Source of the DNA: a virus
Lineage: Duplodnaviria > Heunggongvirae > Uroviricota > Caudoviricetes
Length of the DNA: 15,215 bases
Virus record (IMG/VR): IMGVR_UViG_2778261570_000007
Span: 1 to 15,215 of that record
Reading direction: 5' to 3' (one strand)
Position numbers and translations under genes: made by a program. Positions 130 through 15,215 of the stretch are shown here, piece by piece (the stretch's first letter is position 1; each line of letters starts with the position of its first letter). The notes under the pieces were generated by a model that was not told the DNA's origin, did not search any database, and was given only the letters and a program-made list of their open reading frames with translations.

Positions 130-146
130 GTGGTGCGGGGGTAAAT

Positions 147-281: not shown

Positions 282-286
282 CTGAC

Positions 287-469
287 ATGAGCCGAAAACA
301 CTGGACACACAGAGTGCCGCGAACGACGGCGAAATGGGCACTGGTAGCGATACTGGTGCCTTTTTTATTGGTGGGATGCGTCAGCCTGGATAAGGCGCGC
401 CAGCTTTTCGATACCGCTTCTCTGGTCTGTGAAATTGTCGACGGTGTTCGGCAGTGTCTGCAGAACTGA
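287..469 (+). CDS. Putative small lipoprotein (60 aa) with signal peptide and lipobox
   Basis: The product MSRKHWTHRVPRTTAKWALVAILVPFLLVGC... has a basic n-region, a hydrophobic h-region and an L-V-G-C lipobox. The mature part is about 29 aa with two further Cys. It starts 6 nt after the preceding small ORF. Confidence 0.45.
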   Translation: MSRKHWTHRVPRTTAKWALVAILVPFLLVGCVSLDKARQLFDTASLVCEIVDGVRQCLQN

Positions 470-640
470 TCGCCTGTAAGAGCAGAATATTTTGCTGAAA
501 AATGAAGGGTGCGCCAGCGTCCGGAAAGCATGAAATTCTGTGTTTGTGGCTACTCAATAAAATAAATTCTTTCTGTCGCCGCGAATACTCAAATGTTGAT
601 CAGTGCCCGGTGCGGCGACGGGCTTCGATATCAGGAGACG

Positions 641-940
641 ATGATGGAAAAAACAGAAAACAAACCGATTGTAATTGGTGCTGATGCTGCTCCGTTTAAG
701 TTTGAGTTGTCTCAACTGGTGGAGATGCGCATCAGTGATGAATGGGGTGAGGTTAAAGCCCGCGCGCAGTATGCGTATGGCGAAAACCAGTACCTGATCC
801 ACTACAAAGCAGCTGATGGTCGCGCCACGACGGAGTGGTTTGGTGAGTCAATGCTGGAAGCAACAGAAGATGATCGTCATCCTGGTTGTCCGGTATTTGC
901 TGGTATGAAATTGCCGGAAGGCGCGGTTGTTACTGAGTAA
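641..940 (+). CDS. Hypothetical soluble protein (about 99 aa) immediately upstream of cos
   Basis: Tandem ATG codons at 641 and 644 follow an aggag SD at 633-637. The ORF is in frame with tracked ORF 593..940. The product MMEKTENKPIVIGADAAPFKFELSQLVEMRISDEWGEVKARAQYAYGENQYLIHYKAADGR... is hydrophilic and I do not recognise it. Confidence 0.5.
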   Translation: MMEKTENKPIVIGADAAPFKFELSQLVEMRISDEWGEVKARAQYAYGENQYLIHYKAADGRATTEWFGESMLEATEDDRHPGCPVFAGMKLPEGAVVTE

Positions 941-1169
941 CGGGCATTACAGCAGCCCTTCTGTGTGAGGGGCTGCGATAATGCAACACAGGAATAAAAA
1001 TCGGCAGGGAAATCCGTTAAAGATATGCCGGTGGCGAAAGGATGCCAATGGCTCCTAACCTAACTCGATGTTTCGTTGAAAGCAATAAATCATGTTGCTG
1101 GAATGTGAATGAATGTTGTTTCCATGATGCGTGTCATGTTATGCGCATCCGATATGCAAACCATTCCTA

Positions 1170-1380
1170 TTTTCACGGGTCCTTTCCAGAACCTGAAATA
1201 CCGGGGGTCTGGGGACGCGCAAAAACGCGCTATTTATGAAAATTTTCAGGGAAAAAGCAGATCCGTTCTTCTTCTGGCTAACCTGTTGTTTAATAGAGTT
1301 TTCTTAAAAAAAAGAAAGGATCTGGCAGCGGTGATTTTTCGCTGAAAAAAGCGTTTTGAGATCCTTTCTTCTTTTTGTGA
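1170..1380. promoter_or_regulatory. cos: Lambda-type cohesive-end site (cosQ, cosN, cosB with R3, IHF site, R2, R1)
   Basis: cacgggtcctttcc (1174-1187) matches the lambda right-end sequence ACGGGTCCTTTCC. The cosN-like element gggtctggggac lies at about 1205-1216. It is followed by cgctatttatgaaaattttc (1228-1247), nearly identical to lambda positions about 25-45. ccgttcttcttc (1263-1274) is R3-like. aaagaaaggatct (about 1310-1322) and agatcctttcttc (about 1360-1372) are inverted R2/R1-like repeats. The Nu1 start follows at 1393, as in lambda. Confidence 0.75.
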
Positions 1381-1392
1381 GGAATATGTGCC

Positions 1393-1941
1393 GTGAAGGT
1401 TAACAAAAAGAAACTGGCGGAAATTTTTGAGTGCGATGTCAGAACAATCACTGGCTGGCAAAGTCAGGGGCTGAGAGTTTTGTCGGGGGGAGGCAAAGGT
1501 ATCGAAGCCATGTTCAATACTGCAGAAGCCATTGAGTGGTATGCGCAGCGGGAAAAAGATATCGAAAACGAAAAGCTCCGCAAAGAACTGGAAGATTTGC
1601 GTGCGACTGCAGAATCAGATTTACAACCCGGCACCATTGACTATGAACGCTACCGGTTAACCAAAGCACAGGCTGACGCACAGGAGCTGAAAAATGCCCG
1701 TGAAGAAGGGCTGGTGCTGGAAACGGAATTGTTTACCTTCATTCTGCAACGTGTGGCACAGGAGATTTCGGGGATACTTGTACGTGTGCCGCTGACATTA
1801 CAGCGTAAATATCCGGATATTTCACCGTCACACCTTGATGTGGTGAAAACTGAAATCGCGAAAGCCTCCAATGTTGCAGCTAAAGCCGGTGAAAACGTGG
1901 GCAGGTGGATTGATGATTTCAGACGCACAGAAGGCAGCTAA
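1393..1941 (+). CDS. nu1: Terminase small subunit (lambda Nu1 family)
   Basis: GTG start with gagga SD upstream. The N-terminus [70 protein letters not shown] closely parallels lambda Nu1 (MEVNKKQLADIF...GGGKG...ENEKLRREVEELR). It sits immediately downstream of cosB. Confidence 0.9.
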
Positions 1942-3829
1942 TGCAGCCGGTGCGATAGCTACAGGGCTTTTATCTCTCAATATTCCGGTTCCACTGACGA
2001 CAGTTCAGTGGGCTGATAAACATTATTATCTGCCGAAAGAATCTTCATATACCCCCGGACAATGGGAAACCCTGCCGTTTCAGGTTGCCATTATGAACAG
2101 CATGGGAAATGACCGGATCCGCACCGTTAATCTGATTAAATCGGCGCGCGTTGGTTACACCAAAATGCTGTTGGGGGTGGAGGCTTATTTTATTGAGCAT
2201 AAATCCCGTAACAGTCTGCTTTTTCAGCCAACAGATTCTGCTGCAGAAGATTTCATGAAATCTCATGTTGAGCCCACGATAAGGGATGTCCCTGCATTGC
2301 TGGAGCTGGCTCCATGGTTCGGAAGAAAGCACCGCGATAATACACTCACCCTGAAGCGTTTTTCCTCCGGTGTGGGTTTCTGGTGCCTTGGCGGCGCCGC
2401 TGCTAAAAACTACCGTGAAAAATCTGTGGATGTGGTCTGCTATGACGAACTCTCCTCGTTTGAACCGGATGTGGAAAAAGAAGGTTCGCCGACGCTGCTT
2501 GGCGATAAGCGTATCGAAGGCTCGGTATGGCCTAAATCCATACGTGGCTCAACGCCAAAAATTAAAGGCACCTGCCAGATTGAGAAAGCCGCAAATGAAT
2601 CAGCGCATTTCATGCGGTTTTATGTCCCTTGCCCTCATTGCGGGGAGGCCCAGTATCTGAAGTTTGGCGATGATGCGACGCCATTTGGCCTGAAATGGGA
2701 GAAGGGTAAACCGGAAACGGTGTATTACCTGTGTGAACATAATGGCTGTGTGATCCGGCAGTCGGAACTTGACCAGACCGACGGGCGCTGGATTTGTGAC
2801 AATACCGGGATGTGGACGCGCGACGGCCTGGCATTTTACAGCGCCGGCGATGAGGAGATGCCACCGCCGCGCTCCGTCACTTTCCACATCTGGACGGCGT
2901 ACAGTCCGTTCACCACCTGGGTACAGATTGTTTATGACTGGCTGGATGCGCTGAAGGATCCGAACGGTGTTAAGACGTTTATTAACACCACGCTCGGGGA
3001 GCCCTATGAAGAGGCCGTGGCAGAAAAACTGAGCTTTGAGTTGTTGCTGGAAAAAGTCTGCCACTATGGCGCGCAGGTTCCCCTGCGGGTGGTTTACCTG
3101 ACCGCAGGGATCGACTCCCAGAAAGATCGCTATGAAATTTATGTCTGGGGCTGGGCTCCCGGCGAAGAAGCCTTTCTGATTGATAAGCAAATTATCATGG
3201 GGCGACCGGAAGACGAGGACACCCTTAAACGTGTTGATACGGTGATCCGGAAAAAATATCGTCATGCTGACGGTACTGAAATTTCCATTTCCCGTGTCTG
3301 CTGGGATACCGGTGGTATCGACCAGGACATTGTGTATCAGCGTTCCAGGAAACACGGCACTTTTTTTGTGCTTCCCATAAAAGGGGCATCGGTGTACGGC
3401 AAGCCGGTGATCACCATGCCCAAAAAGCGCAACCAGCGTGGTGTGTTTTTGTGTGAGGTGGGCTCCGATACCGTCAAGGAAATGCTGTACGCCCGTTTTG
3501 CCCTGCCGGTGGTCTCTGCCAGTGAAGCCGCCCCGTATACCTTCCGTTTTCCGGATAACCCCGACATTTTTTCGGAAGAAGAGGCGCGTCAGATCGTGGC
3601 GGAAGAGCTGGTGGAGAAGGTGGTTAATGGCAGGGTGAAACTGCTGTGGGATAAAAAAGGGCGACGCAACGAAGCCCTCGACTGCCTGGTATATGCCTAT
3701 GCTGCCCTGCGTATTTCAGTTCAGCGGTGGCAGCTGGATCTTGAAGCACTGGCCCGTGCCAGAAGAGATGAGCAGGACGACGATGAGATGAGTCTGGAAG
3801 AAATCGCGGCTGCACTGAGTGGAGGATAA
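1913..3829 (+). CDS. A: Terminase large subunit (lambda gpA family; ATPase and endonuclease)
   Basis: Long colinear similarity to lambda gpA, for example [25 protein letters not shown], a P-loop-like [54 protein letters not shown] and [20 protein letters not shown] prefer the ATG at 1913 (aggtgg SD at 1903-1908; about 29-nt overlap with Nu1, similar to lambda) over the tracked 1871 start. Confidence 0.92.
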
Positions 3830-3832
3830 AGA

Positions 3833-4042
3833 ATGGTTTATACGCATGAAATGCTTTGTGATGCCCGACGGGCATTACATGAACTGATGATCGGACGTGC
3901 TGTGGTTTCCGTCAGCAAGGACGGGCGTCAGGTTCAGTATTCGCGGGCGACGATTGGTGAACTGCGTCAGTATATTGAAGAGCTGGAAAGTGCGCTGGGT
4001 GTATCCGGACGGCGTCGCGGCCCGGCAGGAGTGGGGCTGTGA
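3833..4042 (+). CDS. W: Head completion / DNA stabilisation protein (lambda gpW family)
   Basis: 69 aa with a ggagga SD. ARRALHELMIGRAVVSVSKDGRQVQYSRATIGELRQYIEELE...RRRGPAG parallels lambda W (AARAALHDLMTGKRV..QKDGRRV...YIAELE...RRRGPAG). Confidence 0.85.
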   Translation: MVYTHEMLCDARRALHELMIGRAVVSVSKDGRQVQYSRATIGELRQYIEELESALGVSGRRRGPAGVGL

Positions 4043-5610
4043 ACAGGGAACTGGTGGATCTTCACGGGCAGCCACTGCGGCAGAGTATGGGGTATTCCGG
4101 AGGGGGTACCGGATTTGGCGGGCAGCTTGCGGAATGGTTGCCTGCACCGGAAAGTGCCGACGTGGCGCTCTTACCTTCCATTCAGCTGGGTAACGCCCGT
4201 GCGGATGATCTGGTCCGTAACAACGGTATTGCCGCAAATGCAGTGGAAATTCATAAAGACCATATCGTCGGGCACATGTTTCGTCTGAGCTACCGGCCCA
4301 ACTGGCGCTGGCTGGGGATGTCGGAAGCTGATTCGCATGCCTTTATTGAAGATGTGGAGGCGGCGTGGATGGAATATTGCGATCCGGTGTTTGGTTCGAT
4401 GGATGTGGAAGGGCGTCGCTCGTTTACCGAATTTATTCGTGAAGGGGTGGGGGTCCATACGTTTAACGGTGAAATTTTTGTCCAGCCCGTATGGGATACG
4501 GAATCCACGTCATTATTCAGAACAAAATTCAAGACCATCAGTCCGAAGCGCGTCAGCACGCCCGGTTATGGTACCGGCGATCGTTTTATGCGTGCCGGAG
4601 TGGAAATCAACCGTTACGGAAAGGCGATGGCTTATCATGTTCAGGACGATGACTGGCCTGGTTACGGTGTCAGCAACTGGACACGGATTGCGGCGACGCT
4701 GCCCTCCGGGCGACCGGGAATGATCCATGTGTTTCAGCCGCAGGAGGACGGACAGACGCGCGGGGCCAACCAGTTTTATTCCGTGATGGAGCGCCTCAAG
4801 ATGCTCGACACACTGCAGGCCACGCAACTGCAGTCGGCGGTGGTGCGGGCGATGTATGCCGCGACGATTGAATCCACTCTGGATTCAGAAAAAGCATTTG
4901 AATATATCGCCGGGGTGGGAGATGGCGGTAAAAATCCCCTGAACACCATCATGAAAGGCTACGCGCGTTATTACGCCACCAATACGGTAAAGCTGGGCGG
5001 GGTCCGTATTCCGCATCTTTATCCGGGGGATTCACTGAATCTGCAGACAGCGCAGAATGCAGATAATGGTTTCTCTGAACTGGAAAAGGCGCTGTTACGT
5101 TACATTGCTGCCGGGCTGGGGGTGTCCTATGAACAGCTTTCCCGTGATTATTCACAGGTCAGTTATTCCAGTGCCAGGGCATCCGCCAATGAGTCGTGGC
5201 GGTATTTTATGGGCAAACGAAAATTTGTGGCCAGCCGACTGGCATCACAGATGTTTGCCTGCTGGCTGGAGGAAGCTCTTATTCGCGGTGTGATCCGCCC
5301 GCCGAAATCCCGTTTTTCATTCTGGGAGGCCCGTTCCGGATGGTGTCGTGCCGAGTGGATTGGTGCCGGTCGCATGGCGATTGATGGCCTTAAGGAAGTG
5401 CAGGAGGCGGTGATGCGTATTGAAGGTGGCCTGAGCACGTACGAGAAAGAGCTGGCCCTGATGGGCGATGACTATCAGGAGATTTTCCGCCAGCAACTGC
5501 GTGAAAGCCAGGAGCGACAGGCAGCGGGTCTTCCCCGCCCCATCTGGATAAAGGACACGTTTCAGCAGCAGATCCGACAGACAACGGGAGAAAATGGCGA
5601 TGCGTCGTAA
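4039..5610 (+). CDS. B: Portal protein (lambda gpB family)
   Basis: GTG start overlapping the W stop by 4 nt, as in lambda. Extensive similarity to lambda gpB, for example GNARADDLVRNNG, FNGEIFVQPVWDT, GQTRGANQFYSVMERLKMLDTLQATQLQSA, LRYIAAGLGVSYEQLSR and MAIDGLKEVQEAVMRIEGGLSTYEKE. Confidence 0.92.
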   Translation: MNRELVDLHGQPLRQSMGYSGGGTGFGGQLAEWLPAPESADVALLPSIQLGNARADDLVRNNGIAANAVEIHKDHIVGHMFRLSYRPNWRWLGMSEADSHAFIEDVEAAWMEYCDPVFGSMDVEGRRSFTEFIREGVGVHTFNGEIFVQPVWDTESTSLFRTKFKTISPKRVSTPGYGTGDRFMRAGVEINRYGKAMAYHVQDDDWPGYGVSNWTRIAATLPSGRPGMIHVFQPQEDGQTRGANQFYSVMERLKMLDTLQATQLQSAVVRAMYAATIESTLDSEKAFEYIAGVGDGGKNPLNTIMKGYARYYATNTVKLGGVRIPHLYPGDSLNLQTAQNADNGFSELEKALLRYIAAGLGVSYEQLSRDYSQVSYSSARASANESWRYFMGKRKFVASRLASQMFACWLEEALIRGVIRPPKSRFSFWEARSGWCRAEWIGAGRMAIDGLKEVQEAVMRIEGGLSTYEKELALMGDDYQEIFRQQLRESQERQAAGLPRPIWIKDTFQQQIRQTTGENGDAS

Positions 5611-7216
5611 TTTATCGCATATTGCCGCCATGGCATTTAATGAGCCGCTTTTACTGGAACCCGCCTATGCGCGGGTTTTCTTTTGCGCGCTGGGTAAAGA
5701 GATGGGAGCCGGCAGCCTTGCCGTTCCTCAGCAGGCTGTTCAGCTTGATGCTGATGGTATGCAACTGGCTGTGACTGACTATATGGCGGGCGGTCAGCGT
5801 CCGGCAAAGAGTTACCAGGTGAAGAATGGCATCGCCATTCTTCCGGTGAGCGGCACGCTGGTGCATAAACTGGGTACCCTGCGGCCTTACTCCGGCATGA
5901 CTGGCTATGACGGCCTGACGGCCCGCCTTCAGATGGCGGTGAATGATCCGGATGTGCGCGGCATTTTGCTGGATATCGACAGCCCGGGCGGTCAGGCTGC
6001 CGGGGCGTTTGACTGTGCTGACATGATTTACCGTCTGCGGGAACAGAAGCCCGTGTGGGCGCTGTGTAATGACATGGCCTGTTCAGCCGCCATGTTGCTG
6101 GCGGCAGCCTGTACCCGTCGGCTGGTCACGCAGACGGCAAAAATTGGTTCGATTGGCGTGATGATGGCGCACACCAGTTACGAGAAACAACTGGCACAGG
6201 AAGGGGTGGACATCACGCTGATTTACTCCGGGCAGCATAAGGTTGACGGCAACAGTATTCAGGCATTGCCGGCAGGTGTGCGTGCAGATTTTCAGCGCCG
6301 TATTGATGAGGCCCGCCGGATGTTTGTCGACAAGGTGGCGCTTTATACGGGGCTGAGTTCAGAGGCGGTGATGAATACCGAGGCTGCCGTTTATGACGGT
6401 CAGGCAGGCATTGATGCAGGCCTGGCTGATCAACTGATTAATGCTGCAGATGCCGTTGAAGTGATGGTTTCTGCACTGAATGACTCTGTTACGAAGGAGA
6501 ATACAATGACTGTTAAAAATCTCACCGTTGCTGAAGCGGTGGCCCAGGAAAATCAGCGCGTGATGGGGATCCTGAATTGTCAGGAGGCGAAAGGGCGCGA
6601 GCAACTGGCGCAAATGCTGGCAGGTCAGCCAGGAATGACGGTTGAGCAGGCGAAAACGTTGCTTGCAGCTGCGCCGGTTGCCGGTACTGACAGCACGGGC
6701 GATCAGATTATGGGGCTGCCGGAAGCAAAGGGGCGTGAGCAACTGGCACAGATGCTGGCAGGTCAGCCGGGGATGACGGTGGAGCAGGCGAAAGCGTTTC
6801 TGGCGGCAGCCCCTGCTGCTGGTGCTGCAGGCACAGGCGATCAGATTATGGCGTTACCGGAAGCAAAAGGGCGTGAACAACTCGCGCAGGCGCTGGCTGA
6901 ACAGCCGGGAATGACCGTTGACCAGGCCAAAACGTTACTGGCGGCGGCACCGGTTGCGGGTTCTGCAAGTGTCGGCGATCAGATTATGGCGCTGCCGGAG
7001 GCAAAAGGGCGCGAGCAACTTGCACAGGCACTGACAGAACAACCGGGAATGACGGTGGCGCAGGCGAAAACGCTGCTGGCAGCCGCGCCGGCGGCATCGC
7101 AACCGTCACAGGAAACACTTTTTGATCGCTTTATGGCACAGCATGCTGCCAGTGCGGTTTCCGGTGGCGGAACTGCCGGGCGCGGGGAGGAAGACCTGCT
7201 GATGAGTATGCCGTAA
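5594..7216 (+). CDS. C: Capsid maturation protease (S49/ClpP-like, lambda gpC family) with an expanded C-terminal scaffold domain
   Basis: Overlaps B by 17 nt. The N-terminus HIAAMAFNEPLLLEPAYARVFFCAL matches lambda C (HIASMAFNEPLMLEPAYARVFFCAL). Protease-core motifs include PYSGMTGY, ILLDIDSPGG, VWALCNDMACSAA and RRLVTQTAKIGSIGVMMAH. At 540 aa it is about 100 aa longer than lambda C because of internal tandem repeats. Confidence 0.9.
   Translation: MAMRRNLSHIAAMAFNEPLLLEPAYARVFFCALGKEMGAGSLAVPQQAVQLDADGMQLAVTDYMAGGQRPAKSYQVKNGIAILPVSGTLVHKLGTLRPYSGMTGYDGLTARLQMAVNDPDVRGILLDIDSPGGQAAGAFDCADMIYRLREQKPVWALCNDMACSAAMLLAAACTRRLVTQTAKIGSIGVMMAHTSYEKQLAQEGVDITLIYSGQHKVDGNSIQALPAGVRADFQRRIDEARRMFVDKVALYTGLSSEAVMNTEAAVYDGQAGIDAGLADQLINAADAVEVMVSALNDSVTKENTMTVKNLTVAEAVAQENQRVMGILNCQEAKGREQLAQMLAGQPGMTVEQAKTLLAAAPVAGTDSTGDQIMGLPEAKGREQLAQMLAGQPGMTVEQAKAFLAAAPAAGAAGTGDQIMALPEAKGREQLAQALAEQPGMTVDQAKTLLAAAPVAGSASVGDQIMALPEAKGREQLAQALTEQPGMTVAQAKTLLAAAPAASQPSQETLFDRFMAQHAASAVSGGGTAGRGEEDLLMSMP
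6506..7216 (+). CDS. nu3: Putative Nu3-like scaffolding protein from an internal in-frame start within C
   Basis: A strong SD aaggaga (6494-6500) precedes an in-frame ATG at 6506 (MTVKNLTVAEAVAQENQRVMGILNC...). In lambda, Nu3 is nested in-frame in the 3' part of C. Internal initiation here is inferred, not demonstrated. Confidence 0.5.
   Translation: MTVKNLTVAEAVAQENQRVMGILNCQEAKGREQLAQMLAGQPGMTVEQAKTLLAAAPVAGTDSTGDQIMGLPEAKGREQLAQMLAGQPGMTVEQAKAFLAAAPAAGAAGTGDQIMALPEAKGREQLAQALAEQPGMTVDQAKTLLAAAPVAGSASVGDQIMALPEAKGREQLAQALTEQPGMTVAQAKTLLAAAPAASQPSQETLFDRFMAQHAASAVSGGGTAGRGEEDLLMSMP
6584..7135 (+). repeat. In-frame tandem repeat, four copies of 138 bp (46 aa), inside the C/Nu3 coding region
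   Basis: Unit starts at 6584, 6722, 6860 and 6998 (period exactly 138 nt). Each encodes about EAKGREQLAQMLAGQPGMTVEQAKTLLAAAPVAG-x6-GDQIMALP. Copies differ by point substitutions and the last copy diverges at its 3' end. Confidence 0.85.
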
Positions 7217-7254
7217 GCGATATCCGGAATTCAGATAAATCAGGAGGCTGAAAA

Positions 7255-7590
7255 ATGATTAAAACCACCACGGAAAAGCGTGCAGATGTGCGCATTTTTG
7301 CCGGAAGCGATCCGGCGCATACCGCAACAGCCACCAGTGGTATCAGTGCTGCCACACCTGCACTGACGCCACTGATGGTGGATGACGCCACCGGAAAACT
7401 GGTTGTCTGGGATGGTCAGAAAGCCGGAACGGCTGTGGGTGTGCTGGCTCTGGCGCTTGCCGGGACCGAGCCCATGCTGACGTACTACAAAAGCGGTACG
7501 TTTGCCACTGAGTCGCTGGTCTGGCCTGGTTCGGTGGATGCGGTGAAAAAAGCCAACGCATTTGTGGGAAGTGCCATCAGCCACGCCTGA
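7255..7590 (+). CDS. D: Head decoration protein (lambda gpD family)
   Basis: 111 aa with a caggagg SD. [38 protein letters not shown]...[15 protein letters not shown]...AFVGSAIS parallels lambda gpD ([27 protein letters not shown]...KLVAWDG...FYKSGTF...AFAGTAIS). Confidence 0.9.
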   Translation: [111 protein letters not shown]

Positions 7591-7612
7591 TGGTGAAGTG
7601 ATTAACTGAAAA

Positions 7613-7642
7613 AACGGGTCGCGATGCGGCCCGTTTGTGTTT
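7613..7642 (+). terminator. Stem-loop with U-rich tail between D and E (candidate partial terminator or mRNA-stabilising hairpin)
   Basis: aacgggtcgc (7613-7622), loop gat, gcggcccgtt (7626-7635): a 10-bp stem including one G-U pair, followed by tgtgttt. It lies 18-47 nt upstream of the E start. Confidence 0.4.
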
Positions 7643-7659
7643 CTGAAGGAAAATAAATT

Positions 7660-8688
7660 ATGGGGTTATTTACCACGCGTCAGTTACTCGGGTACACCGA
7701 GCAGAAAGTGAAATTTCGTGCGCTGTTTCTGGAGCTGTTCTTTCGTCGCACGATCACTTTCCATACTCAGGAAGTCATGCTGGATAAAATTACCGGCAAA
7801 ACACCGGTTGCAGCGTATGTGTCTCCGGTGGTGTCAGGCAAAGTGCTGCGCAGCCGTGGTGGTGAAACCCGTGTGTTACGTCCCGGTTATGTAAAACCAA
7901 AACACCGCTTTGATTATCAGCAGGCAGTGGAACGTCTTCCGGGAGAAGATCCGGCCCGCCTTAATGACCCGGCTTACCGCCGTCTGCGTATTCTGACGGA
8001 CAACCTGAAACAGGAAGAGCAGGCGATTGTGCAGGTGGAAGAAATGCAGGCAGTCAGTGCTGTTCTGCAGGGTAAATACACTATGAGCGGCGAGCAGTTT
8101 GAGACGGTGGAAGTGGATTTTGGGCGTTCTGCCGCCAATAACATTACGCAGGCTGGCGGACGCGAATGGTCAAAGCAGAATGCTGACACCTTTGATCCGA
8201 CGCATGATCTTGATGCGTACTGCGATTTTGCTTCCGGTACCATCAATATCGCGATTATGGACGGCACGGTCTGGCGTATGCTGAACGGTTTTAAACTGTT
8301 CCGTGAAAAACTGGATACCCGCCGTGGCTCCAAATCTGAGCTGGAAACCGCACTGAAAGACCTGGGGTCCGTGGTTTCCTTTAAGGGCTGGTACGGCGAT
8401 CTGGCTGTCGTGGTGGCGAAGACAACGTATGTTGACGAAAACGGGGATGAACAGCGTTATCTGCCGGAAGGCACACTGATTCTGGGAAATACCCAGGCGG
8501 AAGGCGTCCGTTGCTATGGCGCAATCCAGGATAATCAGGCGCTGAGTGAAGGGATCACCTCTGCGATTCGTTATCCGAAACACTGGGAGGAAGTGGGGGA
8601 TCCTGGTTGCGAATATACCATGACGCAGTCTGCGCCGTTGATGGTGCTGCCGGATCCGGATGCGTTTGTGGTGGTTCAGGTGAAATAA
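7660..8688 (+). CDS. E: Major capsid protein (lambda gpE family)
   Basis: 342 aa (lambda E is 341). Extensive colinear similarity: YVSPVVSGKVLRSRGG, PGYVKPKH, EDPARLNDPAYRRLRI, AIVQVEEMQAVSAVLQGKYTMSGEQF, NNITQAGGREWSK, KLDTRRGSKSELETALKDLG, LGNTQAEG and TMTQSAPLMVLPDPDAFVVVQ. Confidence 0.93.
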   Translation: MGLFTTRQLLGYTEQKVKFRALFLELFFRRTITFHTQEVMLDKITGKTPVAAYVSPVVSGKVLRSRGGETRVLRPGYVKPKHRFDYQQAVERLPGEDPARLNDPAYRRLRILTDNLKQEEQAIVQVEEMQAVSAVLQGKYTMSGEQFETVEVDFGRSAANNITQAGGREWSKQNADTFDPTHDLDAYCDFASGTINIAIMDGTVWRMLNGFKLFREKLDTRRGSKSELETALKDLGSVVSFKGWYGDLAVVVAKTTYVDENGDEQRYLPEGTLILGNTQAEGVRCYGAIQDNQALSEGITSAIRYPKHWEEVGDPGCEYTMTQSAPLMVLPDPDAFVVVQVK

Positions 8689-8693
8689 GACAG

Positions 8694-8719
8694 GGCGGGA
8701 TATTCCCGCCTTTTTCTTT
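8694..8719 (+). terminator. Rho-independent terminator-like hairpin immediately after E
   Basis: ggcggga (8694-8700), loop tat, tcccgcc (8704-8710): a perfect 7-bp GC-rich stem followed by tttttcttt (8711-8719). Confidence 0.7.
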
Positions 8720-8738
8720 AGCGCACGGGAGAGATGTG

Positions 8739-9104
8739 ATGACAAAAGAGCAGATGACTAAACGTTTGCAGGAACTGGCAGTGATTCTGGGGCGTGAAGC
8801 AGATATTTCAGGTTCAAAAGCCGATCTTGAGCAGCGTCTGGCGGAATGGGAGGAGGAGGCCGCTGGATTCGATGGGGAGGAGACGGGGAAGGAAGAGGTG
8901 GGCAACGATGCATCCGGCGACGGAATGCATTCTGAGCAGGGACTCGCCCGGGTGCGTATGCTGAAAACGGCGCATATGCCAGCCTGTGATGCTGTGACGG
9001 GAAAAATGTTGATGTTTGCCCGGGCCTCCAGTGTTGTGCTGGTTAATGAAGCCGCAGTTCCTGCGTTGCTGGCAGACGGTCTGGCAGAAAAAATCCGGGA
9101 GTGA
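8739..9104 (+). CDS. FI: DNA packaging / head assembly protein (lambda gpFI family)
   Basis: ATG at 8739 with a gggagag SD, in frame with tracked ORF 8607..9104. The N-terminus MTKEQMTKRLQELAVILGREADISGSKADLEQRLAEWEEE resembles lambda FI (MTKDELIARLRSLGEQL...GTKEEL..RVAELKEE). The middle is acidic and the C-terminal domain hydrophobic, as in FI. Confidence 0.75.
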   Translation: MTKEQMTKRLQELAVILGREADISGSKADLEQRLAEWEEEAAGFDGEETGKEEVGNDASGDGMHSEQGLARVRMLKTAHMPACDAVTGKMLMFARASSVVLVNEAAVPALLADGLAEKIRE

Positions 9105-9508
9105 TGATGTTCGATAATCTGTTCGATCAGGCCATGAGTGATGCGGATGACATCATCCTGGATACGATGGGGACGGAAATCAGCATATATCCGGGCGGCA
9201 CGGAAAGAAAAATCCGTGCCGTTTTTGATGCCCCGGCAGATAACACCGGGATGAACACTGGCAGCGGCGAAATTCGTGATACTGCGCCCGTGTTATTTAC
9301 CCGGAGCGCATGGGCCGCCGGTCTGAAAAAATATGACAGGGTCATGATCCACGGCGAACCCTATCAGGTAGTCGATCCCGGCTGGGATGAGTCAGGCGCT
9401 GCGGGTCAGGGGGTGATTACCATCACCCTTGCGCGTGGAGAGCCCGGGAGAAATACACCTGCTGCACCGGAACGACCGAGTAAACGTTATGGCAGTCAGA
9501 GAGCATGA
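9104..9508 (+). CDS. FII: Head-tail connector protein (lambda gpFII family)
   Basis: MMFDNLFDQAMSDADDIILDTMGTEISI...AVFDAP...PVLFTRS...GLKKYDRVMIHGE parallels lambda FII (MADFDNLFDAAIARADETIRGYMGTSATI...GVFDDP...PSLFVRTDE...LRRGDTLTIGEE). The start overlaps the FI stop. The exact start (GTG 9101, ATG 9104 or ATG 9107) is uncertain. Confidence 0.8.
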   Translation: MMFDNLFDQAMSDADDIILDTMGTEISIYPGGTERKIRAVFDAPADNTGMNTGSGEIRDTAPVLFTRSAWAAGLKKYDRVMIHGEPYQVVDPGWDESGAAGQGVITITLARGEPGRNTPAAPERPSKRYGSQRA

Positions 9509-10211
9509 ACGAAGCAGTGCCCGGCAGCGACGGCTGGCACGAAACCTCGTTGTCGATATTGATGAAGATGAGGTGCTGAAAATTATCGCTAAACTGGGTG
9601 GGTCAAAAAGTCAGATCCGTAAAGCCTGGGGCGTGGCGCTGAAAAGAGCCGCGTCTGCACTGCGGATGAAGGCTATGGCAGAGTTTAAAAAACAGGTTGC
9701 CCCACGCAGTCAGAAAATGATCAAAAAGCGTGTTCTGCATAATTTTATCATTCGTCGTAACGGTGATGAGTTTGATGAGGCGAAGGTATGGTTCGGTCTG
9801 AACGCCATCAAAGTACGCGATCTGCGCGGACGCATCAGTGGGGGACGACGCGGCGAACGCCATCAGTTGCGCGATGAGCGGGGGCGTTTTGCACCAGCTT
9901 CCAGCCGCAGGAAGGCTCGGGAGATCAGTTTTAAACCTGCCGGGGAATCCCTGCCTGTCACCGCCTGGTCAACGGATGATGCCTTTATCAACCAGTTCGA
10001 AGCGGAAAATCGTAACGGACGTATATCAAAAAGGAAAACGATACTGATCCGACAGGCATCCGGACGACGGAGGGTGCGTGAAGCGGAAATTGATATTTAT
10101 GAAGCCATGCTGAACCGTATAGAGGATTTTGTTTTTCCGGATGCGGAAGCACTGATCCTGAAAAATTTTGAGCATGAACTGAAATTCCGGGTATTTAAGG
10201 GGCTGGAGTGA
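9489..10211 (+). CDS. Putative tail-completion protein, possibly lambda gpZ-like (basic, about 240-260 aa)
   Basis: Sits where lambda has Z (after FII, before U). Highly basic composition with Z-like segments (KRAASALRMKAMAEFKKQV...; AKVWFGLNAIKVRDLRG versus lambda Z ARIKVNRGDLPVIKLGN). The similarity is weak and from memory. The start is uncertain (tracked ATG 9429 overlaps FII by 80 nt; the in-frame ATG at 9489 has a poor SD). Confidence 0.4.
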   Translation: MAVREHERSSARQRRLARNLVVDIDEDEVLKIIAKLGGSKSQIRKAWGVALKRAASALRMKAMAEFKKQVAPRSQKMIKKRVLHNFIIRRNGDEFDEAKVWFGLNAIKVRDLRGRISGGRRGERHQLRDERGRFAPASSRRKAREISFKPAGESLPVTAWSTDDAFINQFEAENRNGRISKRKTILIRQASGRRRVREAEIDIYEAMLNRIEDFVFPDAEALILKNFEHELKFRVFKGLE

Positions 10212-10774
10212 TGGAGCCATTGATGATGGGAGCCTGGCATCAGGCGGTGATTGACAGTCTGAAACAAATTCCCTGGGTGGAAGATGCCGATGAGTACCCG
10301 GAAAAAGTGACGCAACTGGTGACGCCTGCCGTGTTTGTGGATGTGCCCGGCTGGGACAAGGCTCAGTTTGCCGACGGGCAGACGCGGGTCACGCTGAAAT
10401 GCGATCTGTTTGTGGTGACTGACCGGGCCGGGAAGACGGAGAACGTGCCAAAACCGCAGATATTTGCCCGCTGTCTGGCAATGGATTTATCTGACTGGAT
10501 TGATGGAGCCACGTTCGGGCTGGATAACGTTTACCCGGCTGTTTTTATCGATGCTGAGGTGGATACCTTCGACCGGCTGCTGGACGACTACATCGTTTTC
10601 CGTGTCTCTTTCGAACAGGACATTCCGGTCGGCGAAGATCCGTTTGCAGTTCAGGCAGGTGCGCCGTTACAGGAAGTCTGGCTGGGTAAAGTACCGGAAA
10701 CCGGTAAAAAGCATGTGCAGGATTATCGTCTTATCTGGAAAGCGGAGGGCACCGGCGATGAGTCTGGCGGATGA
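10211..10774 (+). CDS. Putative tail terminator / tail-completion protein, possibly lambda gpU-like, with a C-terminal extension
   Basis: Lies after the Z-like gene, where lambda has U. AVIDSLKQ...PAVFVDVPG...TRVTLKCDLFVV loosely parallels lambda U (AAVLDALEK...PAVAVYLTG...ELHIEVFL). The start overlaps the upstream stop (GTG 10208 / ATG 10211). At 187 aa it is longer than lambda U (131 aa). Confidence 0.45.
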   Translation: MEPLMMGAWHQAVIDSLKQIPWVEDADEYPEKVTQLVTPAVFVDVPGWDKAQFADGQTRVTLKCDLFVVTDRAGKTENVPKPQIFARCLAMDLSDWIDGATFGLDNVYPAVFIDAEVDTFDRLLDDYIVFRVSFEQDIPVGEDPFAVQAGAPLQEVWLGKVPETGKKHVQDYRLIWKAEGTGDESGG

Positions 10775-11381
10775 AGTGGCTGAGTTACGCCGCAGGGTGG
10801 CGGACATGGTCCGTCGCGGCGTGGTGGAAGTGGTGATCCCGGGTAGCCCGGTGATGGTCCGGGTGGATATCGGAGATGTGCTTTCGCCGCCGTTGCCCTG
10901 GATTCAGGTGCAGTCCGGGCGTTACATGCAGGTCAGTAATTACCCGGCACCAGGAGATGCGGTCACGGTGATATCGGAGGCAGGTGATCTGCGTAATGGT
11001 CGGGTGTATCCGGGGGCCAACATTGACGCGATTCCGGTACCGGCGGGCAGTGAACACGAGCATGTTATTTTGTTTGATACCGGAACGGAGATCCGTTACG
11101 ACCGCAAGGCTAATGCCCTGTCCATCACGCTGGCTGAAGGCGGCAGCTATAAAATCACCGGCAGGGGAATGCTTGACGGTCCGGTGGAAATCACGGATAC
11201 CCTGACTGTGCAGGGAAAAACGAAGATTAATGCCGATACGCAGGTTCTGGGCAATATCGGTGCCTCACAGGAGATCACCGACAAAACCGGTAGCATGAGT
11301 AAAATTCGCGAAATTTATAATACTCATGATCACCCTGGCGACAGCGGGGGAACCACCCGTAAACCTAACCAGGAAATGTGA
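10758..11381 (+). CDS. V: Baseplate assembly / spike protein (P2 gpV family)
   Basis: ATG at 10758 with a ggaggg SD, overlapping the upstream stop by 17 nt. The N-terminus MSLADEVAELRRRVADMVRRGVV parallels P2 V (NIQELARALRNMIRTGII). The C-terminal NTHDHPGDSGGTT matches the P2 V motif HTHKHPGDSGGTT. The tracked ORF 10464..11381 contains this frame. Confidence 0.85.
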   Translation: MSLADEVAELRRRVADMVRRGVVEVVIPGSPVMVRVDIGDVLSPPLPWIQVQSGRYMQVSNYPAPGDAVTVISEAGDLRNGRVYPGANIDAIPVPAGSEHEHVILFDTGTEIRYDRKANALSITLAEGGSYKITGRGMLDGPVEITDTLTVQGKTKINADTQVLGNIGASQEITDKTGSMSKIREIYNTHDHPGDSGGTTRKPNQEM

Positions 11382-11402
11382 ACGCCGCACCGGCGTTTTT
11401 TT
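11382..11402 (+). terminator. Terminator-like hairpin with T-run between V and W (candidate attenuator)
   Basis: acgccg (11382-11387), loop cac, cggcgt (11391-11396), followed by a 7-T run (11396-11402). The next gene starts at 11415 without an obvious SD. Confidence 0.4.
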
Positions 11403-11414
11403 CGGAAAAATTTC

Positions 11415-11771
11415 ATGATTGGTATTGATTCCGCCACTGGCAGATATCTGCACGGTAACGAACATCTGCGTCAGTCCGTCACCGATATTTTATCAACACC
11501 GGTCGGCAGCCGGGTACTTCTCAGGGAATACGGCAGCAGGTTGTTCAGTCTGCTTGATAACCCGCAGGATGATTTTACGCGGGTGAGGATTGTCCGTGAA
11601 ACGGCAACCGCCCTTGAACGCTGGGAGCCCCGCCTGACCCTCCGGCGGGTGGAGGTGACGTGGACAGGAGAAGGAAGCGCCTGGCTGACGCTTGTCGGGG
11701 TGAACAACGAAACACAGGAAACGATTCGACTCGAGGAGATAAAAATTGGCAGCATCTCAGGCCATTATTGA
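11415..11771 (+). CDS. W: Baseplate wedge protein (P2 gpW / T4 gp25-like family)
   Basis: 118 aa. SVTDILSTPVGSRVLLREYGSRLFSLLDNPQ...ALERWEPRLTL parallels P2 W (SIGDILRTPVGSRVMRRDYGSLLASMIDQPQ...KWEPRVTL). Confidence 0.85.
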   Translation: MIGIDSATGRYLHGNEHLRQSVTDILSTPVGSRVLLREYGSRLFSLLDNPQDDFTRVRIVRETATALERWEPRLTLRRVEVTWTGEGSAWLTLVGVNNETQETIRLEEIKIGSISGHY

Positions 11772-12660
11772 TCTGTCCGCGATACCTGTACCGGATGCGG
11801 TGGAGGTGCCGGACACCGCTGTACTGGTCACTCAGATAGTGGCGAAATATCAGGAACTGGACACGTTGTTTTCGGCCCTGGTGGAATCTGATCCCGCGTA
11901 TAAATGGGCAGAGGCGCTGGCTTTTCGGGTGGCGCTGATGCGCCAGCAGATAAATGATGCTGTCCGTGCTGTACTGCTTGCCAGTGCCGGTGGGAGCGAT
12001 CTGGATCAGGTTGGCGCGAATTATCAGGTTCAGCGGCTGGTCATTACCCCGGCAGACGACAGCACCATTCCGCCCACGCCGGCGGTGTATGAACATGATG
12101 ACGCTTTTCGCGAACGTATCCAGTTGTCGTGGGCACGGCTCAGCACCGCCGGCGCGAAAAATGCGTATCACTATTTTGCACAAAGTGCTGATCCTGATGT
12201 GCTGGATGTGAAGGCTTACGGGCCGGAAACGCATTCGCAGGAAGGTCGGGTTTTTCTTTATGTGTTATCCCGCTCCGGAAATGGCACTGCACCACAACCC
12301 CTGCTGGATAAGGTGGCAGCATCAGTCAGTGATGATGAAACCCGTCCCCTGACGGATTTTGTCAGTGTCCGGACGGCAGAAATTATTCCCTACGATGTGG
12401 TGGCGGATATTCATATTCCCTACGGACTGGATGGTGAACTGGTTATGTCAAATGCCCGCAAGGCGCTGCAGTCATACACTGACAGCGTCCACCGGATTGG
12501 CTCGGTGGCATCCCGTTCCGGCATGGATGGTGCCCTTCACCAGACCGGGGTGATTACGGTGAATCTGACCTCTCCGGGCAGTGATATCGTTCCTGCGATG
12601 GGGCAGGCACCGTGGTGCCGTAAGGTAACGCTGAATAAGGTGGAGACAACTGATGAATGA
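11746..12660 (+). CDS. J: Baseplate assembly protein (P2 gpJ family)
   Basis: TTG start at 11746 preceded by a gaggag SD (11733-11738). IIDLSAIPVPDAV, LDQVGANYQVQRLVITPADDSTIPPTPAV and a C-terminal ...TTDE parallel P2 J (IIDLNQLPAPDVV, LDVIGANYNTTRLTITPADDSTIPPTPAV, ...GGSDE). Confidence 0.88.
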   Translation: MAASQAIIDLSAIPVPDAVEVPDTAVLVTQIVAKYQELDTLFSALVESDPAYKWAEALAFRVALMRQQINDAVRAVLLASAGGSDLDQVGANYQVQRLVITPADDSTIPPTPAVYEHDDAFRERIQLSWARLSTAGAKNAYHYFAQSADPDVLDVKAYGPETHSQEGRVFLYVLSRSGNGTAPQPLLDKVAASVSDDETRPLTDFVSVRTAEIIPYDVVADIHIPYGLDGELVMSNARKALQSYTDSVHRIGSVASRSGMDGALHQTGVITVNLTSPGSDIVPAMGQAPWCRKVTLNKVETTDE

Positions 12661-13243
12661 CGATATCAGGAGCATACTGCCGGTCAGTGCCAGCCGGGCA
12701 GAGCGGGTGGTGGACTGTGTCTCCGGAGATATGCTGTCAGACATAGCGGTCTGCCTGATCCGCTATGTGAAAAATCCCGATTTATGCCCTGCTGAATTGC
12801 TGCCATGGCTGGCCTGGGAAATGGCGGTGGATACCTGGAATGAACACTGGACGGAGACGGAAAAAAGGTCTGCGATAAAACGTGCTGCTTACATCCACCG
12901 ACACAGAGGGACTAAAGCGGCGCTGATGGCATCGCTGGCTGACAGTCCCTTCCGGTCGCAGATTGTTGAGTGGTATGAGCAGACCCCGCCCGGGGAGCCG
13001 TATACCTTTCGTCTGAACGTGGAACAGAAGGATTTACCGGTGCTGATGAATGATCATCAGGATCTTAAGCATGCGGTGCTCCGTGCCAAAAATCTGCGCA
13101 GCTGGTTCAGTATTCACGTTTACGGGAACAGCACAGGGCGTGGATTTGGTTACGGCTATGTGATGGCGACAGAAAAAATCAGAAGTACTGGTGTGACAAC
13201 AAAGACAGTGCCCACAGGCGGGCAGAGTGAGGCAGGTGTATGA
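12653..13243 (+). CDS. I: Baseplate / tail protein (P2 gpI family)
   Basis: NPDLCPAELLPWLAWEMAVDTWNEHWTETEKRSAIKRAAYIHRHRGTKAAL...EWYEQTPPGEPYTFRL parallels P2 I (NPDTCPANLLPWLAWAFSVDRWDEKWPEATKRAVIRDAYFIHCHKGTIGAV...EWWENSDPPGTFRL). Overlaps J by 8 nt. Confidence 0.85.
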   Translation: MNDDIRSILPVSASRAERVVDCVSGDMLSDIAVCLIRYVKNPDLCPAELLPWLAWEMAVDTWNEHWTETEKRSAIKRAAYIHRHRGTKAALMASLADSPFRSQIVEWYEQTPPGEPYTFRLNVEQKDLPVLMNDHQDLKHAVLRAKNLRSWFSIHVYGNSTGRGFGYGYVMATEKIRSTGVTTKTVPTGGQSEAGV

Positions 13244-14499
13244 ATGGACTGATTCTGACAACGTCCGGCGCTGCAGAAATTGAAGCAGCATATCAGAACG
13301 GGCAAACCGTGACCGTCCGGCATGTTCTGCTTGGTGACGGGGGCGGGCGGGCATTGCCATCCACGCCGGATGAAATGGCAGCAATGACATCGTTGTACGG
13401 CGAATTCGGGCAGGAACCCTTTTCCGACGGTGCGATGGAGGAGGGCTTCATCAGCGGGGATATTGTGATTGACTGTAAATCATACCCCGGTAAAACCCTT
13501 CGTGAACTGGGGATGATCAGCGACAGAGGTACGCTTATCGCGTACGGACGTTATCCCGACACCTTTTTACCAGACCAGACGGACTCCGTTATCAAGGAAG
13601 TTATTCTGACGCTGGTTCTTGGGCTGACGCACGCACAAAACGTGGTGCTGGAAGTTGATCCGGACAGGGCCATTATTACTCAGGAAATCGGAGACAGACG
13701 CTATCTGCAACGAAAAAAGAATCTTTCGGATGTGGAAGACAAGGATGAGGCTGTTGAAAACCTCGGATTAAAACCCACGGTGGACAAGGCAAAAAATGCC
13801 GTTCAGCGTGATGGTGACACCATGACCGGGGAGCTGAAAATCCGTGGTGTTAATGCGCTGAGGATTTTCAACGAAGCCTTTGGCCTGATTTTTCGTCGTT
13901 CGGAAGAGTGCCTGCACCTTATTCCAACACAGGAAAACCAGGGTGAAAATGGCGATATTGGTCCACTTCGCCCGTTCACTATTAATCTGCGGACGGGTGA
14001 AATATCCATGTCGCATAAAGTGTCTGTTGGTGGCGGTTCTCAGGTGAATGGTGCGCTGGGTATCGGCGTTCAGAATGCCCTGGGCGGAAACTCAATTGCT
14101 TTCGGGGATAACGATACCGGCCTGAAACAGAATGGTGATGGCCTGCTGGATGTTTATGCCAATGGTCAGCACGTATTCCGTTTTCAGAATGGCGCGTTAC
14201 AAAGTAACCGGGCGGTGAACGTTACTGGGCGGGTAACACCGTCAGACTACGGAAACTTTGATGCCCGTTACCAGACCAAAACAGGCGGCGTGCAGGATGT
14301 GCGTTATGGTTCCGAAATGTATTACAACCCGGGAGGTAACGAGATAACCTGGACGTTTCGCTCACCTTCAGGCCACGGATTATCCGGTATTTATGTGCAG
14401 GATACCGGAAGAAGTTCGGCAGATAACATTGGTGGTGTGTATTACAGACCGCTTCAGAAACTGATTAACGGCACCTGGTATAACGTGGCGAGTGTTTAA
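13240..14499 (+). CDS. H: Tail fibre protein (P2 gpH family), short form
   Basis: The N-terminus (TTSGAAEIEAA...VTVRHVLLGDGGG) and the C-terminal region (KAKNAVQRDGDTMTGEL; NALGGNSIAFGDNDTGLKQNGDGLLDVYANGQHVFRFQNG; GNFDARY; YRPLQKLINGTWYNVASV) parallel P2 H (NAVQKNGDTLSGGL; NALGGSSIVLGDNDTGFKQNGDGILDVYANSQRVFRFQNG; FRPIQKYINGTWYNVAQV). At 419 aa it is much shorter than P2 H as I recall it. Confidence 0.85.
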   Translation: MNGLILTTSGAAEIEAAYQNGQTVTVRHVLLGDGGGRALPSTPDEMAAMTSLYGEFGQEPFSDGAMEEGFISGDIVIDCKSYPGKTLRELGMISDRGTLIAYGRYPDTFLPDQTDSVIKEVILTLVLGLTHAQNVVLEVDPDRAIITQEIGDRRYLQRKKNLSDVEDKDEAVENLGLKPTVDKAKNAVQRDGDTMTGELKIRGVNALRIFNEAFGLIFRRSEECLHLIPTQENQGENGDIGPLRPFTINLRTGEISMSHKVSVGGGSQVNGALGIGVQNALGGNSIAFGDNDTGLKQNGDGLLDVYANGQHVFRFQNGALQSNRAVNVTGRVTPSDYGNFDARYQTKTGGVQDVRYGSEMYYNPGGNEITWTFRSPSGHGLSGIYVQDTGRSSADNIGGVYYRPLQKLINGTWYNVASV

Positions 14500-14501
14500 C
14501 A

Positions 14502-15044
14502 ATGTTGCATTTAAAAAATATTACTGCAGGCAATCCGAAAACCGCAGAACAATATCAGATGACAAAACAACATGGTATCACCTGGCTTTTTTCGGAAGAT
14601 GACAAAAACTGGTATGAAGAACAGAAGAACTTTGCCAGTGACACCATAAAAATGGTTTACACCGGAGACGGGCGCGTGGTGTGGGTCGGTAAGGATGTGA
14701 CAGGCATTGAACCCCGTAACGCCAGTGTTATTGAAGTTCCTGATATTACCGCTAATCGCCGTATTACCGTGCCTGGTTACTGGTTTTACCGCAACGATAA
14801 ATTTGTCTTCGACTACAAACTAAAAGCGGAAGATGAGCGCGATGCTCTGTTAAAACAGGTCAGCATCATGACCAGCGAATGGGAAAAAGACCTGCTGCTG
14901 GGATTAATCAGTGACGAAGACAGGGGGAAGCTGAAAGCGTACCGCATTTACGCGAAATCGCTGCAGGCGATGGATTTCAGCGCTATTACGGATAAGCCCA
15001 CTTACAACAATATTAGCTGGCCTGAACAGCCACAAAATACCTGA
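14502..15044 (+). CDS. G: Tail fibre assembly chaperone (P2 gpG / Tfa family)
   Basis: MLHLKNITAGNPKTAEQYQMTK...WLFSEDDKNWYEEQKNFASDTIKMVY...VIEVPDITANRR parallels P2 G ([22 protein letters not shown]...[26 protein letters not shown]...VVEVPDITSNRR). Starts 3 nt after the H stop. Confidence 0.88.
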   Translation: MLHLKNITAGNPKTAEQYQMTKQHGITWLFSEDDKNWYEEQKNFASDTIKMVYTGDGRVVWVGKDVTGIEPRNASVIEVPDITANRRITVPGYWFYRNDKFVFDYKLKAEDERDALLKQVSIMTSEWEKDLLLGLISDEDRGKLKAYRIYAKSLQAMDFSAITDKPTYNNISWPEQPQNT

Positions 15045-15063
15045 AAAAGAAGTTAATCATCTG

Positions 15064-15086
15064 ACCGCCTGAGGGCGGTTTTTTTA
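15064..15086 (+). terminator. Rho-independent terminator after the tail fibre assembly gene
   Basis: accgcc (15064-15069), loop tgag, ggcggt (15074-15079), followed by a 7-T run (15079-15085), about 20 nt after the G stop. Confidence 0.7.
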
Positions 15087-15098
15087 TGGGAGAAATGT

Positions 15099-15164
15099 AT
15101 GTCCGGATTACATGGTGTTGAAACCATTGAACTGACGACAGGCACGGTTGCCGTGCAGACGTAA
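15099..15164 (+). pseudogene. Tail sheath-like N-terminal fragment (21 codons then TAA)
   Basis: ATG at 15099 with a gggag SD (15088-15092). MSGLHGVETIELTTGTVAVQT* resembles the N-terminus of the P2 FI sheath (MSDYHHGVQVLEINEGTRVISTV...) but ends at TAA 15162-15164. The remaining 51 nt in any frame do not look like sheath sequence. Confidence 0.35.
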
Positions 15165-15215
15165 GCGGCTCGTCAGAACCGTATTGATATTTACTGAGAG
15201 CTCAGATCAACTTTC

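Follow-up and report, generated by a model that had tools for sequence, protein, structure and literature searches.

The stretch of DNA analysed here comprises positions 1 to 15,215 of the IMG/VR virus record IMGVR_UViG_2778261570_000007 (15,215 nucleotides, the whole of which is called the window below), and the gene studied in it ends at position 10,211 and follows a head-tail joining gene of the lambda FII type. An earlier reading of the letters (the original prediction) had placed its product, mainly by position, as the counterpart of gpZ of phage lambda, i.e. as a tail completion protein (TCP). Judged from its genes, the window is the late region of an Escherichia coli prophage that combines a head and neck of the lambda type with a contractile tail of the P2 type. 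The prophage is present in 78 of 5426 complete E. coli genomes and is known only from bacterial genomes; a megablast search with positions 9000-10800 against the phage collection gave no match.

Gene, start codon and gene order

The part of the window around the gene contains the following features:

9101 to 9508, plus strand: FII-type head-tail joining gene (head closure, Hc1); Pfam Phage_attach, E = 6.3e-13, and PHROG 82 'head closure Hc1', E = 8.8e-30
9429 to 9488, plus strand: upstream extension of the longest open reading frame (ORF), with TTG at 9429 and GTG at 9435; no Shine-Dalgarno sequence at a usable distance, not conserved in the Salmonella relative (locus L010), stops in other relatives
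9489 to 10211, plus strand: gene of the putative gpZ-type TCP (Neck1), 240 residues, isoelectric point (pI) 10.9, net charge +22; PHROG 27, hidden Markov model (HMM) via intermediates, start as in PGAP and as in the N-termini of homologues
10211 to 10774, plus strand: tail terminator gene (PHROG 1072, 'unknown function') with an acidic product (pI 4.3); start codon ATG overlapping the stop of the TCP gene (TGATG)
10758 to 11381, plus strand: baseplate spike gene of the P2 gpV type, with which the P2-like tail module begins; PHROG 9992 'baseplate assembly protein', E = 8.4e-24, weak matches to Phage_base_V and Apex, annotated by PGAP in the TUM9812 prophage (locus L001)

The longest ORF runs on the plus strand from TTG at 9429 to 10211 (260 residues), has an in-frame upstream stop at 9414 and, counted from that TTG, shares 80 nt with the FII-type ORF 9101-9508, the overlap that the original prediction had described. 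That prediction had left the start uncertain, and ATG 9489 (240 residues) is almost certainly the true start as far as the sequence and its relatives tell, which leaves an overlap with FII of 20 nt. The equivalent ATG is the start given by PGAP in a 98%-identical prophage of E. coli TUM9812, a protein cluster at 99% identity with 1223 member sequences has a length of 240 residues, and a 63%-identical Salmonella protein starts at the equivalent ATG. In that Salmonella locus the DNA just upstream of the start is conserved and the in-frame translation of the 20 upstream codons is not, and four relatives that are more distant have an in-frame stop 3-5 codons ahead of their ATG or GTG start. No Shine-Dalgarno sequence was found at a usable distance from TTG 9429 or GTG 9435. 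The segment 9429-9488, which codes for the C-terminal tail of FII in another frame, is thus most likely not translated as part of the TCP. At the other end, the stop codon TGA (10209-10211) shares bases with the start codon ATG of the next gene (TGATG). There is thus an overlap with the neighbour on either side, in junctions of a type typical of translational coupling.

The head and neck module is lambda-like and consists of the genes for the small and large terminase subunits, W, the portal protein, an S49 protease/scaffold (C), D, E, FI and FII. Downstream of the TCP gene and one further gene follow P2-type baseplate and fibre genes (V, W/gp25, J, I, H and a fibre assembly gene, G) and, in the complete prophage of TUM9812, the genes for sheath, tube, tail assembly, tape measure, U, X and D. 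The gene thus sits between FII (Hc1) and a gene for a protein with a terminator fold, which is identical to the lambda order FII, Z, U. The order FII, Z-like gene, terminator was also found in Citrobacter phage Chris1, Vibrio phage Valp1 (where the counterpart is already annotated as 'tail completion or Neck1 protein') and E. coli phage vB_EcoM-569R10, as well as on a metagenomic contig and on two contigs from a Salmonella assembly and a sequencing-run assembly, in all cases beside P2-type tail genes. The gene is kept at this exact position in distant phages of Escherichia, Salmonella, Citrobacter, Hafnia and Vibrio. In the literature it is this order (FII, TCP, terminator) that defines TCP genes (PMC11099176, PMC11784142).

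The order of the tail genes varies. In the window V, W, J, I, H and G (region 10758-15044) are followed by sheath and tube; in Chris1 sheath, tube, tape measure, U, X and D come directly after V, with W, J and I only behind them, and a further contig (L011) agrees with Chris1 in this order from V to D as far as it reaches. The block of FII, Z-like gene, terminator and V is constant while the order of the tail genes differs. In the Salmonella locus (AALIXB010000051, 6760-7825, minus strand) an insertion of about 1.2 kb lies between the Z-like and terminator genes and disrupts their overlap, which is invariant elsewhere. It contains two overlapping ORFs that, from reading the sequence, resemble a frameshifted TnpB (OrfB) of the IS200/IS605 type with a C-terminal zinc-finger motif.

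Relationship to lambda gpZ

The sole match of the protein in PHROGs was PHROG 27 ('tail completion or Neck1 protein', E = 1.1e-28), with residues 34-259 of the 260-residue ORF aligned to profile positions 3-194 of 199. Lambda gpZ itself (192 residues, from J02459) matches the same PHROG with E = 3.2e-69. We used an alignment of 20 homologues (A1) as a profile against 1.84 billion representative proteins and retrieved 187 relatives, many of which are about 180-200 residues long and match in two stretches that leave out the central segment. An HMM built from 94 of the intermediates gave 134 bits for the protein of the window, 42-55 bits for Pfam-annotated gpZ proteins (E = 1e-9 to 1e-6 at a database size of 1.8e9) and 40 bits for lambda gpZ (E = 2.7e-5), in a collinear alignment. 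By these profile comparisons the protein is a diverged member of the lambda gpZ family and not of the gpS/gpG type, and an assignment that had been positional is now backed by the PHROG 27 profile and by an HMM that leads through intermediates. An NCBIfam scan of the protein gave nothing meaningful, and HK97-gp10_like (PF04883) had no match to it at E <= 1 and was absent from the families matched by the 20 homologues.

Two of the proteins retrieved with A1 (P0135 and P0168, with E-values of 3e-12 and 4e-7) are large WD40-repeat proteins with STAND NTPase and CHAT domain architectures. They were considered as carriers of the central motif and rejected as false positives, in which 8-13 weak matches to the central segment are summed over the WD40 repeats; they are worth leaving out of any family census.

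The strong basicity of the protein is a family trait. Its pI is 10.86-10.88, its content of lysine and arginine 22-23% (35-38 R and 20 K) and its net charge +22, compared with pI values of 4.3-7.0 for the other 15 genes of the window, except for the small W protein (9.1). The basic residues are distributed along the whole chain, as had been noted from the letters; the two basic peptides quoted at the time, GGRRGERHQLRDERGRF and RKTILIRQASGRRRVRE, are present and were located at 9840-9890 and 10032-10082, respectively. Many arginines are invariant or nearly invariant in the homologues (R12, R15, R18, R53, R59, R73, R81, R128 and R133, and further R140, R141, R178, R182, R195, R197 and R234), which indicates that the basic composition is selected and not due to chance. 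Lambda gpZ has a pI of 12.0, 24% K+R and a net charge of +37, 82 gpZ proteins confirmed by Pfam have a median pI of 12.0 and 147 relatives from the present searches one of 10.6, and P2 gpS has a pI of 10.5. The description of the protein as unusually basic thus holds in comparison with the neighbouring genes and does not hold within its own family: strong basicity is a trait of gpZ-type proteins at large and is exceptional only against the neighbours.

Another finding was that the basic TCP has a very acidic terminator (pI 4.1-4.5) as its partner in all phages that were checked:

Lambda: TCP pI 12.0, terminator pI 4.05
This window: TCP pI 10.9, terminator pI 4.3
Chris1: TCP pI 11.25, terminator pI 4.39
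Valp1: TCP pI 10.38, terminator pI 4.18
569R10: TCP pI 10.2, terminator pI 4.47

This pairing fits the neck structure of phage 80alpha, in which a single TCP lies in the neck lumen with its positive face towards the DNA end and a positive patch touches the connector ring (PMC11661146).

The product of the downstream gene (10211-10774) gave the following terminator-fold matches, together with many further ones to terminators:

R2 pyocin collar PA0615: 14.8
Mu terminator: 13.4
T5 p142: 12.8
Lambda gpU: 12.7

The PHROG 1072 partner can be named a tail terminator. A terminator role for the protein of 9489-10211 was considered as well and rejected, as that role belongs to this downstream gene.

The protein is longer than lambda gpZ (240 versus 192 residues), as the original prediction had also stated for the ORF. 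With both sequences aligned to the HMM of the intermediates (hmmalign), the additions comprise an N-terminal extension of 9-17 residues, two small insertions (residues 150-158 and 174-180) and a longer central one:

9846 to 9914, plus strand: central basic insertion, residues 120-142, RRGERHQLRDERGRFAPASSRRK; from the hmmalign alignment of the protein and lambda gpZ to the HMM of the intermediates

The central insertion lies at the same site as the SRRRRRKKGQR loop of lambda gpZ and carries a motif, H-x2-RD-x(1-3)-GRF, which is conserved in a branch of long forms (about 205-240 residues, found in the prophage of the window, Chris1, yong2 and others) and of which H125, R128 and G132 are invariant in A1. 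Short relatives skip the corresponding profile positions (~108-141). The short forms (about 175-196 residues, without the central insertion) are found in the same gene order in Valp1 and, according to tblastn searches against the phage collection, also in the known myophages ep3, ECO1230-10 and Arya. For three short-form intermediates the genomic context was limited to contigs of 1-1.4 kb. Since shorter relatives thus serve known myophages, the extra length is not a general adaptation to contractile tails. The suggestion that the protein could be a tail completion protein adapted to a myovirus tail is in this way divided: its first half agrees with the PHROG 27 match, and length as the adaptation is not supported, given the shorter relatives of myophages.

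A mediocre AlphaFold2 (AF2) model of the protein (mean pLDDT 63.6, with values below 50 for residues 83-152), too uncertain to test the fold, starts with long helices, continues with a beta hairpin and ends with helices at the C-terminus. The predicted order of these elements agrees qualitatively with the way in which TCP structure has been described, including the extra apex insertion of lambda gpZ (PMC11661146).

Other features of the prophage

We also observed several features elsewhere in the prophage. In the prophage of TUM9812 the large terminase gene (terL) is interrupted by an insert of about 10.5 kb (~3290-13880 of that locus) with genes for an integrase, a helix-turn-helix regulator, a BRO-N protein, an Icd-like protein, a RepA helicase, SSB and a major capsid and a head decoration protein of its own; it looks like a phage satellite, of the capsid-forming phage-inducible chromosomal island (PICI) type, within terL. 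In the window terL (1871-3829) is intact.

The C gene of the S49 protease/scaffold (5594-7216) contains a tandem repeat at 6583-7091 (plus strand; period 138 nt, 3.7 copies, 80% identity), which codes for about four repeats of 46 residues (LPEAKGREQLAQxLAxQPGMTVxQAKxLLAAAP...) in the C-terminal, scaffold-like part of the protease. A strong GC-rich hairpin of 9 pairs followed by a T-run (8692-8712) is located between E, the major capsid gene, and FI, 4 nt past the stop codon of E (8688); it might act as an intrinsic terminator or attenuator and so increase the amount of capsid mRNA relative to that of the downstream neck genes. FI (8733-9104) matches positions 359-481 of the 481-position profile of PHROG 2353 'major head protein' (E = 2e-75), i.e. 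its end, which suggests that E and FI are fused, or annotated as one protein, in some phages. The longest ORF in the FI frame (8607-9104, from TTG 8607) overlaps the end of E.

Probable role in tail completion and alternative readings

Taken as a whole, the results are best explained if 9489-10211 encodes a TCP (Neck1), a diverged gpZ homologue that acts in a prophage with a lambda head and a P2 tail, and we consider this, including the role set out here, very probable. The present analysis itself shows the family membership, the gene order, junctions of the coupling type on both sides, arginines that are conserved and an acidic terminator as the recurring partner of a basic TCP; the steps of the mechanism are modelled on lambda gpZ, SPP1 gp16.1 and 80alpha gp51. 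The acidic terminator encoded by the adjacent downstream gene would cap the tail tube and the sheath, after which one or a few copies of the basic TCP would join the finished tail at its head-proximal end, within the neck or the lumen of the terminator. Once head and tail are joined, the TCP would be flanked by the end of the packaged genome on one side and by the tape measure protein on the other, with its positive surface facing the DNA and the acidic wall of the channel, and would position the DNA end in the tail for genome ejection. Particles without the TCP would be expected to be non-infectious or poorly joined.

Functional background on TCPs is available from several studies (PMC11661146, PMC11099176, PMC11784142). 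In lambda, gpZ is added to the tail after gpU, and particles without gpZ look normal, have an infectivity that is about 500-fold lower and have their DNA misplaced at the head-tail interface; SPP1 gp16.1 is required for heads to join to tails and for the DNA to enter the cell, and gp51 of 80alpha lies, as a monomer, between the end of the DNA and the tape measure protein (PMC11099176, PMC11661146).

Several observations weigh against this reading. The protein had no match in Pfam at E <= 1, including the gpZ model Minor_tail_Z (PF06763), and for 20 close homologues PF06763 gave a single match (E = 0.021). Nevertheless, four of the ten intermediates tested (P0049, P0050, P0065 and P0077) pass the gathering cut-off of that model (23.9 bits) with 27-34 bits, so the curated model is too narrow for this branch and its failure does not exclude homology. 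The profile-profile comparison of the family alignment (A3) with the gpZ alignment (A2) was collinear and weak (probability 17%, E = 0.0015, 137 columns), and hhalign of A1 against the single lambda gpZ sequence gave nothing; because direct comparisons were empty or weak, the link to gpZ is made through intermediates. Foldseek searches with the AF2 model against PDB and BFVD gave nothing at E <= 0.001, and no significant structural neighbour was found although PDB includes the 80alpha/SaPI1 neck entry 9mu2, which is described with a tail completion protein. The centre of the model is too uncertain for this result to say anything either way. Sequence and profile searches of PDB (with A1, A3 and the gpZ alignment A2) returned only designed repeat proteins and noise, so among the structures searched there was no solved member of the gpZ family. 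Finally, the TCP of T5 is found on the side of the tail tip rather than in the neck, the myophage necks solved to date show no TCP (PMC11784142), and lambda gpZ is yet to be located in virions (PMC12617516). In view of the first two of these reports, the location in the neck is the weakest step of the proposal.

The same reports lead to the alternative that survives best, in which the TCP of the gpZ family acts outside the neck lumen, at the far end of the tail while it is assembled or triggered, as in T5, where the TCP p143 is a monomer on the side of the tail tip. TCP density is also unreported for solved myophage necks and for lambda (PMC11784142, PMC12617516), and the location is not fixed by any of the computed results. 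On the other hand, 80alpha gp51 was resolved within the neck, between DNA and tape measure protein (PMC11661146), the DNA of lambda particles without gpZ is misplaced at the head-tail interface (cited in PMC11099176), the gene appears to be translationally coupled to both FII and the terminator gene, and the pairing with an acidic terminator recurs in all phages checked. We regard an action at the distal end as quite unlikely.

Far less probable is that the protein is a TCP of the P2 gpS/Mu gpG type (PF05069, PHROG 26) that was acquired together with the P2-like tail module. The tail module (V, W, J, I, H, G, sheath, tube, U, X and D) is indeed P2-like, the R and S genes precede V in P2, and gpS is likewise basic. 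Pfam Phage_tail_S, however, gave no match at E <= 1, P2 gpS falls in PHROG 26 and the protein of the window in PHROG 27, and hhalign of the family alignment against gpS gave a probability of 0.2%. The similarity to Mu gpG-type families that had been envisaged was thus not borne out, and at the sequence level this possibility is effectively refuted. Equally remote is a moron, i.e. an accessory protein that binds nucleic acids, is encoded by an insert between head and tail modules and is not a virion component, as the original prediction had also considered: the high Arg/Lys content, the PGAP label 'hypothetical protein' and the lack of a Pfam domain would suit it, but it is contradicted by the absence of promoter- or terminator-like sites flanking the gene (counts at or below shuffle expectation), by a GC content of 0.51-0.56 equal to that of the neighbours, by the 20-nt overlap with FII and the TGATG junction with the terminator gene, by the same position in all relatives examined, including distantly related phages, and by the homology to gpZ.

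For a gpZ-type TCP, the comparison with known systems gives the following picture. With lambda gpZ the protein shares PHROG 27, a collinear alignment via intermediates, a place directly after FII and directly before the terminator gene, strong basicity, a basic loop at the same internal site and a very acidic terminator partner, and the head module is also that of lambda (a lambda-type, i.e. cos-type, terminase, portal, C, D, E, FI and FII). It differs from gpZ in its length, with the N-terminal extension, the longer central insertion with its motif and the two small insertions, and in being missed by the Pfam gpZ model; moreover, the tail is contractile and P2-like instead of the siphovirus tail of lambda, and the terminator partner is closer to the pyocin collar and the Mu terminator than to gpU. 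A second group of relatives is found in Valp1, the E. coli phages vB_EcoM-ep3 and ECO1230-10, Enterobacter phage Arya, Pseudomonas phage PPpW-3 and Burkholderia phage Mica, with proteins named 'minor tail protein Z' or, in RefSeq, 'tail completion or Neck1 protein'. These phages are myophages or have myophage-type tail genes, their proteins belong to PHROG 27 as well, and Valp1 has the same succession of FII, TCP, a PHROG 1072 terminator and baseplate V. Unlike the protein of the window, those of this group are about 175-196 residues long without the central insertion (27-31% identity to it where measured), and several pass the PF06763 threshold.

With the HK97 gp10-like TCPs (PF04883) 80alpha gp51 and SPP1 gp16.1, the protein would share the functional class and shares the place of the gene between those for head closure and terminator; one face of these TCPs is positive and contacts DNA. 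No similarity to them was detected in sequence or fold searches, they are smaller (112-149 residues) and have no inserted central region, and 80alpha and SPP1 package by headful, whereas the prophage of the window has a lambda-type terminase. P2 gpS and Mu gpG are, like the protein studied here, basic and would be its counterparts as TCPs of contractile-tailed phages with similar tail modules, but they form a separate sequence family without profile similarity, and in P2 the S gene follows the terminator gene R, whereas in the window the TCP gene precedes the terminator gene.

The conserved basic insertion of the long forms (H-x2-RD-x(1-3)-GRF...F-x-P-x-G), at the apex where lambda gpZ has its arginine-rich loop, might be a dedicated contact module, by which the TCP is locked to a contractile-tail terminator of the pyocin-collar/Mu type, a P2-type tape measure protein or the cos DNA end; we think this unlikely, though not far-fetched. 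Since neither lambda gpZ nor a TCP in a myophage neck has been located so far, hybrids of a lambda head and a P2 tail with a larger TCP might be favourable for localising a protein of the gpZ family. For annotation there is a direct gain, as the protein, which PGAP labels 'hypothetical' and which belongs to a cluster of 1223 sequences, can be named a gpZ-type TCP. For the phages themselves, the finding means that the lambda-type neck order FII, Z, terminator stays intact when it is joined to a contractile tail of the P2 type.

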